DNA from: Minisyncoccota bacterium
GTDB taxonomy: Bacteria; Patescibacteriota; Minisyncoccia; Phycocordibacterales; SW-6-46-9
NCBI GenBank assembly: GCA_040905385.1
Contig: JBBDRP010000002.1
Span: 679,010 to 743,009, forward strand
Length of the DNA stretch: 64,000 nt
Direction of reading: 5' to 3'
The notes under the pieces are model-generated. The model was not told the DNA's origin, searched no databases, and was given only the letters and a program-made list of their open reading frames with translations. Of this stretch, positions 30,305-31,944 are shown in pieces. Numbering within the stretch: the stretch's first letter is position 1; each line of letters starts with the position of its first letter. A program made the position numbers and the translations under genes.

Positions 30305-31944
30305 CAGATTAGGATACATTCCACGGCCACCTTCCGATAGCCGTACCTTGTTACGACTTACTCCCTGTTACTAAGCTCGCCTTCAGCCCACGCGAGGTGG
30401 GATTTCGGGCGCTCCTAGCTTCCTTGAGTTGACGGGCGGTGAGTACAAGGCTCGAGAACGAATTCACCGTGGTATTGCTGACCCACGATTACTAGCGATT
30501 CCATCTTCATGCAGTCGAGTTTCAGACTGCAATCCGGACTGAGATACCGTTTGAGGATTAGCTCACTCTCGCGAGGTCGCTGCCTATTGTCGGTACCATT
30601 GTAGCACGTGTGTAGCCCGAGGCATCAGAGGGACATGCTGACCTGGCGTCATCCCCTCCTTCCTCCCACCACGCAATTCACGAGCAAATTGCGAGTAAAA
30701 AGTTTAAAGTTGAAAGTATAAAGAAAAAACTTTTGACTTTATACCTTCTGCTTTTTACTAGCAGCGCTCCTGTGCTGCGTGGTAGGCAGTGCCGCATGAT
30801 ACATATAACATACGGTGAGGGTTACGTTCGTTTCCCCACTTAAGGGAACAGTTCAAACCACGAACTGACGACGGCCATGCATCACCTGTCTATCTGTCCC
30901 GAAGGAAAGGCCAGGTTTCTCCGGCCGGTCAGATAGATGTCAAGCCTCGGTGAGGTTCTTCGCTTATCGTCGAATTAAACCACATGCTCCACCGCTTGTG
31001 CGAGCCCCCGTCTATTCCTTTGAGTTTTAATCTTGCGATCGTAGTACCCAGGCGGTTCACTTAACGGGTTACCTTCGCCTCGGAGAGGGTCGATGCCCCC
31101 CAAAGCTAGTGAACAGCGTTTACGGCTAAGACTACCGGGGTATCTAATCCCGTTCGCTACCTTAGCTTTCGTCCATGAGCGTCAGAAATGTGCCAGTGAG
31201 TTGCCTTCGCTTTTGGTGTTCCCGACGATATCAACGGATTTCACCCCTACACCGTCGGTTCCACTCACCTCTCACACCCTCTAGCTCTGCCGTTTCCGAC
31301 GCAGCCACGAGGTTAAGCCTCGTGATTTAACATCGGACTAACAGAGCCGCCTGCGGACCCTTTACGCCCAGTAATTCCGGATAACGCTTGGGGCACTCGT
31401 ATTACCGCTCCTGCTGGCACGAGTTTAGGAGCCCCTTATTACCTGAAGTAATGTCAATAAACTTCTTCCTTCAGAAAAGATGTTTACACACCGAAGTGCT
31501 TCATCCATCACGCGACGTCGCGCCGTCACACTTTCGTGCATTGCGGACGATTCTCGACTGCAGCCTCCCGTAGGAGTATGGACCGTGTTTCAGTTCCATT
31601 GGTGGGGGTCAGCCTCTCAGCTCCCCTACGCGTCGTAGCCTTGGTAAGCCATTACCTTACCAACAAGCTGATGCGACGCAGGACACTCCCAGAGCGAAAA
31701 AACTTTACCCCCCACCACTTCTACACTCAACTTCACATAGTGTTCCACTTTGCGTATATATTAAGCGCAAAAGTGGTGGGGGGACTATCGGGTATTAGCC
31801 ATAGTTTCCTATGGTTATTCCCGTCTCTGGGGTATGTTCCTACGCGTTACTACCCATTCTGCCGGGAGTCTAAACTCCCTCGACTTGCATGCCTTATCCA
31901 CGTCGCCAGCGTTCATCCTGAGCTAGGATCAAACTCTACAAAAA
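30305..31944 (-). rRNA. rrs: 16S ribosomal RNA (with ~95-nt AT-rich expansion in V7 and a non-canonical 3' tail)
   Basis: The reverse complement begins AGAGTTTGATCCTAGCTCAG. It contains the 515-region GTGCCAGCAGGAGCGGTAATAC, the 1400-region GACGGGCGGTGAGTACAAG and the 1492-region AAGTCGTAACAAGGTA. The coordinates of both ends are approximate. Confidence 0.9.

Follow-up and report, generated by a model that had tools for sequence, protein, structure and literature searches.

How can a bacterial ribosome choose its start codons if its 16S rRNA lacks the anti-Shine-Dalgarno (anti-SD) sequence, and what becomes of extra sequence inserted into the gene for that RNA? Both questions are raised by a 16S rRNA gene within a stretch of 64,000 nucleotides of bacterial DNA, here called the window. 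The gene lies at 30309..31944 on the minus strand, as do all the features given coordinates below. It had been identified as 16S rRNA in an earlier reading made from the letters of the window (here termed the sequence-only reading), which had the strand wrong. The identification is borne out by a full-length match to the bacterial SSU covariance model RF00177, untruncated from model position 1 to 1533, which scores 1370.1 bits where the gathering threshold is 50. The gene is 1636 nt long, or about 1470 nt once two insertions are subtracted. In the covariance-model alignment, the conserved sequences of the decoding centre and of helices 44 and 45 (CCGCCCGUCA, AAGUCGUAACAAGGUA and the GGAA loop of h45) are all present. 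We take it to be a functional 16S gene, and probably a single-copy one.

The 530-loop region, GUGCCAGCAGGAGCGGUAAUAC (31399..31420), was located both by the RF00177 alignment and by an exact-pattern scan. Its only change is a compensatory swap in the pseudoknot pairs, from GGC:GCC to UCC:GGA. More than 120 species genomes carry the exact 22-nt signature, almost all of them labelled Patescibacteria, Paceibacterota or Parcubacteria, and the 16S genes of Paceibacterota MAGs among 120 sampled species genomes are 80–82% identical to that of the window over about 1400 nt. Closer relatives are the metagenome contigs L124–L126, which are 97.5% identical over the 16S core. The 530-loop signature and the 16S identity, taken without a tree, place the lineage in the Patescibacteria/Paceibacterota, and the gene is that of an uncultured, ultra-small member of the Patescibacteria (CPR), one of the Parcubacteria/Paceibacteria kind.

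The 3' tail that follows helix 45 (30309..30322) was aligned against the consensus GGAUcACCUCCUUu. It reads GGAAUGUAUCCUAA where the canonical gene has GGAUCACCUCCUUA, and the CCUCC core is absent. The structural alignment puts the 3' end of the gene at ...GUAUCCUAA, again with CCUCC absent, and the same GGAAUGUAUCCUAA tail is present in four independent metagenome contigs (L124–L127); alignment and contigs thus agree with the sequence-only reading, which had described a tail lacking this core. In other related loci the tails were located by searching for AAGTCGTAACAAGGTA with mismatches allowed; the exact motif occurs in merely 4 loci, because the clade carries AAGGCA. CCUCC is missing from 71 of the 76 readable related tails. 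The tails vary widely between related lineages, that of the window resembling a GGAACAUAUCC... type which is frequent in Paceibacterota MAGs, and in many relatives the tail forms a covarying mini-hairpin (UUCA/UGAA, CUCA/UGAG or UUCC/GGAA). Loss of CCUCC is an inherited trait of the clade, and not a local defect. It is worth adding that the CCUCC anti-SD is near-universal in bacterial SSU rRNA, yet does not define the family.

A hairpin was read from the sequence directly 3' of the tail (30278..30307; CUGUC-C-UCAAC-UAAC-GUUGA-AGAUU-GACAG), and relatives carry a compensatory A:U to U:A change within it, UCAUCUAACGAUGA. We considered whether the true 3' end might lie further downstream and contain CCUCC. 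This is rejected: the sole candidate downstream is a CCUC, which lies in the 5' arm of this covariation-supported hairpin, and GAGG and GGAG are absent upstream of the genes.

The loss of the anti-SD from a subgroup of Parcubacteria has been published (Tsurumaki et al. 2022, RNA 28:1041; PMC9297842), with no more than 48% of Parcubacteria found to carry CCUCCU, and loss of uL1 is reported to overlap with the group that lacks the anti-SD (PMC9297842). The view that the traits of this gene are informative about its lineage is therefore upheld, as they match the CPR subgroup of Parcubacteria/Paceibacteria that has no anti-SD (PMC9297842). They had also been called unusual among bacteria; the traits themselves are confirmed, but they are less of a surprise now that the phenomenon is seen to be already published (PMC9297842).

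The mRNAs were analysed alongside the tail. Gene starts were taken as those of the longest ORF rather than from a trained gene finder, and some start spacings are consequently wrong; the true start of prfB, for example, lies 3 nt later than called. Any of the words AGGA, GGAG or GAGG was found at −20..−3 in only 2 of the 67 called genes of the window, compared to 7.1 for random genomic windows and 4.3 for composition-matched shuffles. The same pipeline applied to E. coli as a control recovered an SD in 15 of 43 genes, with a peak at −15..−11. Among 269 genes from 71 related loci, SD-like words were found in 14%, compared to 12% in shuffles, and with a flat positional profile; only 5 loci in the sample, with 21 genes, keep CCUCC, a number too small to reveal any use of the SD among them. 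SD words are thus uncommon in the window and in related loci alike, as the sequence-only reading had claimed for the genes it inspected, and mRNAs that lack an SD accord with a 16S tail that lacks CCUCC. The count in the window covers 64 kb of the genome, and a genome-wide loss is an extrapolation from it. A UCCU survives in the tail, and weak pairing between it and AGGA is conceivable, although AGGA is not enriched.

What is enriched upstream of the genes of the window is a different kind of word. The top hexamer at −25..−1 is TATAAT (9 genes, 22-fold), and extended −10 boxes of the form TGNTANNNT are found 11–18 nt upstream of 11 starts, against 0.9 expected. The −10 boxes of the window scatter over −8 to −23 and have no one sharp peak, while in the relatives, with 269 genes pooled, the box most often begins at −12, −13 or −14 (18, 11 and 9 genes). 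Words resembling a −10 box are expected fairly often in A/T-rich upstream DNA. A good example of a promoter close to the start is prfB (22672..23592), which has the extended −10 box TGCTATACT 15 nt upstream of its ATG; both the box and its spacing are kept in L126 and L127 despite differing flanks, and neither an SD nor a +1 frameshift window was found in this gene. Similarly, the region upstream of pyrG (20808..20827) lacks an SD and contains TGCTATAAT at a distance of 17 nt from the ATG. The genes are also tightly packed, with about 17 of 52 same-strand neighbour pairs overlapping or lying no more than 11 nt apart. From the −10 boxes 11–18 nt before the starts, together with this packing, we infer leaderless or short-leader initiation combined with translational coupling.

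We hypothesise that initiation dispenses with SD:anti-SD pairing and follows three routes. For many first cistrons, transcription would be driven by (extended) −10 promoters located 11–18 nt before the start codon, giving mRNAs with no leader or one of only a few nucleotides, on which the ribosome would bind the 5'-proximal AUG directly. Downstream cistrons that lie 0–11 nt from the previous stop codon, or overlap it, may be translated by coupled termination and reinitiation. The remaining starts would be found in A/U-rich regions that are presumably unstructured. The observation on the spacing from −10 box to start codon is new here, and in the literature searched no paper was found that links leaderless translation to Parcubacteria or Patescibacteria.

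The insertions were analysed using the same alignment. The larger is in helix 40 (30670..30780), where 111 nt take the place of a 4-nt loop, and the stretch from AACGAACGTAACCC to GGAAGGAGGGGATGACG is 155 nt, compared to 46–47 nt in minimal relatives. The sequence-only reading had described an AT-rich expansion of about 95 nt in the V7 area. Its size and AT-richness are confirmed by the 95 nt at 30673–30767, which have a G+C content of 33%, but the expansion is in helix 40 and not in helix 39, which is shortened. These 95 nt correspond to only 17 nt in the 97.5%-identical relatives, 78 nt being lacking. Folded together with its base stem, the insert is predicted to form a single rod-shaped hairpin with about 45 bp (MFE −54.4 kcal/mol, z = −6.2), in which the longest perfect helix is the 12-bp base and bulges interrupt the rod. 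The three AT-rich hairpins suggested earlier give only −29.0 kcal/mol, and that fold is abandoned in favour of the single rod.

Expansion at this site is common. Helix 40 is expanded in 44 of 90 related 16S genes, with 50–256 nt from motif to motif against the minimal 46–47 nt. The lengths range from about +3 to +210 nt, forming a broad continuum from +30 upwards, and consist of A/T-rich, non-conserved sequence on top of a conserved G+C-rich base stem. Mirrored short repeats are present on both arms in L110, L111 and L030, and as AAAGT/ACTTT in the window; this repeat-like composition suggests growth by slippage. In close relatives the same base stem, CCUACCAC/GUGGUGGG, bears a shorter extension, which suggests stepwise growth. 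Across the clade, helix 40 is a general hot spot of such growth.

The second insertion, overlooked in the sequence-only reading, is at the tip of helix 9 (31711..31780). It measures 70 nt, compared to 4 nt in close relatives, or 55 nt against 3 nt when compared to the RF00177 model (31718–31772); the relatives have a minimal CCCGCAAGGG hairpin. It is predicted to fold into a single hairpin with 24 contiguous bp (MFE −48.6 kcal/mol, z = −8.7). A survey of helix 9 lengths across loci is limited to the range 40–115 nt, being noisy above about 120 nt, where the anchor motifs mis-fired. Relatives that are 97.5% identical lack the helix 9 insert and 78 nt of the helix 40 insert, which shows that both have grown recently. 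This recent growth and the predicted single-hairpin folds are new here.

Two other origins for the inserts are rejected. A search with intron models gave no match to either insert at Rfam E <= 1, the only hits being to miRNA precursors; these are below threshold and reflect the hairpin shape, and the inserts are too short to contain an ORF. An intron or known RNA family is thus not indicated. Nor is a mobile or repeated element, as blastn-short, run with the two inserts on the window and 125 loci, turned up no further copy. The inserts are hairpins specific to this lineage that extend helices 40 and 9 at their solvent-side tips.

The 16S gene is bracketed by a predicted processing stem, formed from a 5' leader arm (31947..31978) and a 3' trailer arm (30102..30133), the latter 176 nt past the 3' end of the 16S. 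With the leader restricted to its final 50 nt, the duplex has 28 bp and an energy of −33.4 kcal/mol, compared to −17.1 +/- 2.7 for shuffled trailers; using a 200-nt leader in duplexfold, shuffles scored equally well. The trailer region is 93–94% conserved in L124–L127, and in L125 and L126 the pairing survives although each arm has changed in sequence (UUCA:UGAA to UCCA:UGGA). A leader–trailer stem with compensatory changes indicates that the rRNA is probably processed by a mechanism based on double-stranded RNA.

It could be argued that this copy of the 16S has degenerated or been misassembled, its odd tail and inserts being the result of decay or chimerism, with a normal 16S containing CCUCC elsewhere in the genome. 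The view is limited to one 64-kb window, no 23S gene is linked to the 16S there, and about 2.8 kb of extra DNA separates the 16S from tRNA-Ile relative to the relatives. Against this, the match is full-length and high-scoring with conserved decoding-centre sequences, the inserts keep the base helices exactly and have compensatory structure, and compensatory changes maintain the leader–trailer stem. The tail is shared by four independent contigs, CCUCC is missing in 71 related loci also, and SD-free mRNAs match the tail. A degenerate copy is thus extremely improbable. Hardly more credible is the idea that the anti-SD was replaced rather than lost, with the tail UAUCCUAAUC pairing with a lineage-specific ribosome-binding motif such as UAGGAU. 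Close relatives do strictly conserve the tail past the canonical 3' end, and UCCU is still contained in it, but words of 4–6 nt that could pair with the tail show no enrichment at −20..−3 upstream of the genes of the window (48 vs 48.1, 13 vs 16.2 and 3 vs 4.1), and on this ground a replacement anti-SD is rejected. The sole enriched upstream words are −10 boxes and A/T-rich words, and the wide differences between the tails of related lineages also count against it. A functional 16S of its clade, with an inherited loss of the anti-SD, initiation that does not use an SD, and recent hairpin extensions, is the best explanation overall, and we regard it as probable.

There remains the fate of the inserts, each of which may either be tolerated as an expansion segment or be cut from the precursor by a double-strand-specific RNase; we consider the two about equally likely. 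Excision by RNase III or another dsRNA nuclease would make them intervening sequences (IVSs), a possibility that the sequence-only reading had raised for the V7 expansion, and leave the mature 16S in two to three fragments within the 30S subunit. This has an even chance of being correct. Both inserts are at helix tips and contain long duplexes (24 contiguous bp in helix 9; the rod of about 45 bp with its perfect 12-bp base in helix 40), their presence and absence among 97.5%-identical relatives is the sporadic pattern typical of IVSs, and the 28-bp leader–trailer stem implies dsRNA-directed processing. Most CPR rRNA insertions are moreover missing from transcripts, according to Brown et al. 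(2015) as reported in PMC9297842. On the other hand, the bulges break up the helix 40 rod, the shorter extensions of relatives (stems of 12–15 bp) are too short for RNase III, and the broad continuum of helix 40 lengths resembles ordinary growth of a variable region or expansion segment. The inserts could equally be bacterial expansion segments that stay in the ribosome as surface hairpins, neutral or weakly functional, having arisen by slippage-type duplication on both arms. The tip of helix 40 is expanded on a conserved base stem in about half of the related 16S genes, several with mirrored short repeat units on both arms, and the relatives have their shorter extension on that same stem. Eukaryotic rRNA likewise has an expansion on helix 9, ES3S. 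This outcome is held to be nearly an even bet, given that a perfect 24-bp duplex would suit RNase III as a substrate, that neither insert has yielded a homologue from which covariation for a conserved function could be read, and that the comparison with CPR transcripts, as summarised in PMC9297842, points to removal.

A fuller picture of the anti-SD-less Paceibacteria would combine leaderless initiation and coupling, in the manner of mitochondria or archaea, with a repurposed 16S tail, which in many relatives carries the covarying mini-hairpin, and a retained, fast-evolving helix 40 expansion segment. The majority of transcription units would then have no leader or a very short one and be driven by extended −10 promoters that adjoin the AUG, coupling serving the internal cistrons. 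We offer this combination tentatively, as somewhat less probable than not.

Comparison with known systems is instructive. Bacteroidota initiate independently of the SD while retaining the CCUCC anti-SD; they resemble the window in having genes without an SD and A-rich upstream regions, but differ in the 16S itself, where the window lacks CCUCC. Translation of leaderless mRNAs is found in Actinobacteria, Deinococcus, many archaea and mammalian mitochondria. The −10 box about 12 nt before the start codon is a feature shared with these systems, the transcripts of the window being deduced from DNA. In Actinobacteria and Deinococcus the anti-SD is retained and many genes rely on an SD, while mitochondria resemble the window in having a small-subunit rRNA without an anti-SD. 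IVSs excised by RNase III are found in the 23S of Salmonella and Leptospira, and in the 16S of some Helicobacter, Campylobacter and Clostridium; to our knowledge helix 40 is not a classical IVS site. The window inserts, which are known at the DNA level, resemble IVSs in their helix-tip location, long stem and sporadic occurrence among close relatives. With eukaryotic expansion segments they share fixed surface sites, and helical extensions that are variable in length and biased in composition. They differ in belonging to a bacterial ribosome and in being far less conserved, since they differ between 16S genes that are 97.5% identical.

A further comparison is with the anti-SD-less Parcubacteria (PMC9297842), in which CCUCCU is likewise missing, the core is of the CPR-typical length of about 1.47 kb when insertions are subtracted, and the 16S contains insertions. 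The lineage of the window shares only 80–82% 16S identity with the species genomes sampled, 120 in number, and the published work leaves the 5' regions of mRNAs unexamined, unlike the present analysis. As PMC9297842 cites Brown et al. (2015), 42% of CPR 16S genes have insertions of at least 100 nt, many of them being 0.5–5 kb and intron-like or encoding homing endonucleases. The window resembles these in having extra sequence at helix tips of a CPR 16S gene, but its inserts, of 111 and 55–70 nt, are plain hairpins with no ORF and no match to group I or II introns. The basic traits, loss of the anti-SD and insertions in CPR 16S genes, are thus already published (Tsurumaki et al. 2022; Brown et al. 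2015, the latter as represented in PMC9297842), and the value of the present analysis is mainly confirmatory, with the addition of the spacing between promoter and start.

There are practical consequences. Gene finders, and start prediction based on ribosome-binding sites, will mis-call starts in genomes of this kind. The 515F primer site is altered in the 16S of the window, and insertions inflate the length of the 16S and can break assemblies and amplicon surveys. Comparison with the 97.5%-identical relatives shows how fast hairpins grow at the helix tips of CPR rRNA. The locus is a clear instance of a bacterial lineage that has abandoned SD:anti-SD pairing altogether, going beyond mere disuse, and it offers a natural experiment on the choice of start codons by a bacterial ribosome in the absence of that pairing.

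The 16S rRNA gene of the window is complete (30309-31944, minus strand; RF00177, 1370.1 bits, model positions 1-1533). In the covariance-model alignment it deviates from the consensus in three places, namely helix 40, helix 9 and the 3' tail. Without its two insertions the gene has a length of ~1470 nt, the size given as typical of CPR 16S rRNA (PMC9297842). An Rfam search found no 23S or 5S gene in the 64-kb window, and in the absence of a 23S gene the rRNA genes are considered to be unlinked. The G+C content is 51% in the 16S and 44% in the window. It rises to 48–55% (against 33–45% in places elsewhere in the window) at genes for two P-type ATPases and a CitMHS/TrkA-C transporter (45978-48005, 56923-59649 and 59659-61566, minus strand), which hints at either compositional heterogeneity or acquired DNA.

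Over its final 32 nt (31947-31978), the 5' leader forms a minus-strand helix of 28 bp with a trailer segment (30102-30133) located 176 nt beyond the 3' end; the duplex energy is -33.4 kcal/mol, compared to -17.1 ± 2.7 with shuffled trailers. The pairing is preserved in relatives although both arms have changed sequence. This is the classical stem of precursor processing, which speaks for expression and processing of the gene. Compared to its relatives, the window has a 44-nt spacer insertion, and ~2.8 kb of additional DNA (27290-30100) between the 16S and tRNA-Ile(GAT). This segment carries an ORF of the inositol-monophosphatase family (27432-28220) and three unknown ORFs (28400-28696, 28827-29363, 29554-29784). 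On L125 and L126, contigs of close relatives with 97.5% 16S identity, tRNA-Ile follows ~270 nt after the 16S.

The lineage is indicated by the 530-loop region (31399-31420, minus strand), which in the Rfam alignment reads GUGCCAGCAGGAGCGGUAAUAC / GTGCCAGCAGGAGCGGTAATAC. Read together with an upstream CUCCUAA, GUGCCAGCAGGAGCGGUAAUAC shows two pseudoknot pairs exchanged in a compensatory manner, from GGC:GCC to UCC:GGA; the change also alters the 515F primer site. An exact scan with the 22-mer, in a sample of one genome per GTDB species, gave more than 120 genomes among the matches listed, nearly all of them labelled Patescibacteria, Paceibacterota, Parcubacteria, Kaiserbacteria, Nomurabacteria or similar. 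The organism is therefore a Parcubacteria/Paceibacteria-type member of the CPR. All the 530-loop genomes among the matches listed have only 80–82% 16S identity to the window, so that none of them is a close representative.

Helix 45 is intact and has its GGAA loop. The tail that follows it is GGAAUGUAUCCUAA, where the consensus is GGAUCACCUCCUUA, confirming the sequence-only reading that CCUCC is missing. The same is true of 71 of the 76 related loci with a readable 16S 3' end; in these the tail takes the form GGAAUAAUUCAAUUUGAA, GGAUUAAUUCCAAUUGGA or GGAACAUAUCCAAUCGGAA. CACCUCC or CAUCUCC is retained in just five (labelled Kuenenbacteria, Peribacteria, Parcubacteria group in two cases, and Patescibacteria group). 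Scanning metagenomes with the helix 45 of the window yielded four contigs (L124-L127) in which the tail and downstream sequence are identical to the window; the 16S core of three of these, L124-L126, is 97.5% identical. A true 3' end farther downstream was also looked for. The sole CCUC there sits on the 5' side of a hairpin, UCAACUAACGUUGA, which shows a compensatory A:U to U:A change in relatives, and it is therefore rejected as a single-stranded anti-SD in favour of a structured spacer. The CCUCC-less tail is real, and a trait of the clade. An anti-SD motif was detected in only 48% of Parcubacteria, its loss overlapping with the group that lacks uL1 (Tsurumaki et al. 2022, PMC9297842). Most of the anti-SD-less relatives have a small tail hairpin starting 4 nt after GGA (for example L039, L028, L012 and L060), with covarying pairs UUCA/UGAA, CUCA/UGAG, UUCC/GGAA and UCC/GGA; stems of at least 4 bp are found in 51/71 tails, compared to ~30 in shuffles. 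This hairpin is absent from the window and its close relatives.

The genes likewise lack SD motifs, as had been claimed. Longest ORFs were called without overlap, which gave 67 that span 82% of the window. AGGA, GGAG or GAGG is found at -20 to -3 in just two of these, where 7.1 ± 2.5 are expected from random genomic windows and 4.3 ± 1.9 from shuffled upstream segments. The same pipeline applied to 50 kb of E. coli K-12 gave 15/43 (8.0 in shuffles), the hits being most frequent at -15 to -11, and is therefore able to detect SD where present. Words of 4–6 nt complementary to the window's own 3' tail are not enriched upstream of its genes. Across the 71 anti-SD-less loci, 269 genes have SD words at a frequency of 14%, compared to 12% in shuffles, and the profile is flat. 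A SAM-I riboswitch (RF00162, 61.9 bits; 14827-14921, minus strand) lies upstream of ORF 14369-14758; because this ORF has a long leader without SD, regulation is presumably transcriptional. A LOOT RNA (RF03000, 65.4 bits; 4511-4633, plus strand) precedes a 276-aa ORF (4690-5520).

We propose that the missing anti-SD may be replaced by leaderless or short-leader initiation, with downstream cistrons reached by termination-reinitiation coupling. The upstream regions are 71% A+T, and the most enriched hexamer at -25 to -1 is TATAAT (9 genes, 22-fold). The hexamer of an extended -10 box (TGNTANNNT) lies 11–18 nt upstream of 11 called starts (0.9 expected), in nine cases at 11–14 nt. In pooled relatives the first base of a -10-like hexamer shows a sharp peak at -12 (18 genes), -13 (11) and -14 (9), with 0–4 genes at the flanking positions. 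Such a spacing would be expected of transcripts that begin at the AUG or slightly ahead of it. A/T-rich boxes 14–20 nt upstream of the ATG are kept in relatives for the pyrG, MauE-like and DoxX-like genes. As for coupling, gaps of at most 11 nt, or overlaps of 4–41 nt, are seen for about 17 of the 52 neighbours on the same strand, which fits termination-reinitiation.

For prfB (RF2; 22672-23592, minus strand; TIGR00020, 346 bits, under its 370 cutoff), a TGnTATACT box 15 nt upstream of the ATG is kept in L126 and L127, as is its distance, while the flanks differ; the called GTG start reads GTA in relatives. The protein is N-terminally short, with prfB (here 22672-23577) starting at the position after the programmed +1 frameshift of E. 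coli RF2, and prfB contains neither the CUUUGA site nor an SD-like stimulator. It therefore lacks the autoregulatory frameshift that an SD stimulates, in agreement with, though not diagnostic of, SD loss. Directly upstream is an 819-aa ORF (23620-26079, minus strand) with no Pfam match and 70–77% DNA identity in L126 and L127.

The expansion noticed from the sequence lies in helix 40, not helix 39, which is adjacent and shortened. It comprises 111 nt in place of a 4-nt loop (30670-30780, minus strand), and the ~150 nt estimated between two conserved motifs measures 155 nt. A second insertion, in helix 9 (31718-31772, minus strand; 55 nt against 3 at the tip), had been missed, and the strand had not been stated. 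The three hairpins proposed for helix 40 (-29.0 kcal/mol) give way to a single rod in the 141-nt region, with helices of 12, 2, 5, 3, 9, 5, 5 and 4 bp (-54.4 kcal/mol, z = -6.2). The helix 9 region folds into 24 contiguous bp (-48.6 kcal/mol, z = -8.7). Neither insert matches an intron or other Rfam family, and no further copies occur in the window or 125 loci. In the 97.5%-identical relatives, helix 9 is minimal (CCCGCAAGGG) and helix 40 has the common base stem CCUACCAC...GUGGUGGG but lacks 78 nt of the window insert; both inserts thus grew, or were lost, very recently. A helix 9 of this length is rare among related 16S genes. The helix 40 region exceeds its 46–47-nt minimum in 44 of 90 clade 16S genes, reaching 256 nt between the flanking motifs, and is a clade-wide expansion hot spot. 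The expansions are A/T-rich and non-homologous, often with short repeats mirrored on both arms, such as AAAGTT/AACTTT, TAATTACCAAT and GCTTACAGCTTT (L110, L111, L030 and L097; window 30690-30750), which suggests growth by slippage and compensating duplication.

Two fates of the inserts, about equally likely, fit these features. They may be intervening sequences cut out by a dsRNA nuclease, in line with the 24-bp duplex in helix 9, the leader-trailer processing stem, and the comparison with transcripts that Brown et al. (2015) made for CPR insertions, as relayed in PMC9297842. They may instead be fast-evolving expansion segments kept in the ribosome, a possibility favoured by the broad spread of helix 40 lengths and its stepwise growth.

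The sequence-only reading was thus correct in its observation and main interpretation, with the caveats noted. The traits do inform on lineage but are less novel than had been supposed: anti-SD loss in a subgroup of Parcubacteria and frequent insertions in CPR rRNA genes are already published, and the locus is a further example. In the searchable literature we found no paper linking leaderless translation to Parcubacteria or Patescibacteria. What is added here is the very recent origin or loss of both inserts, helix 40 as an expansion hot spot across the clade, and a promoter spacing which, alongside the missing anti-SD, we infer to mark in the DNA an initiation on leaderless or short-leader mRNAs.
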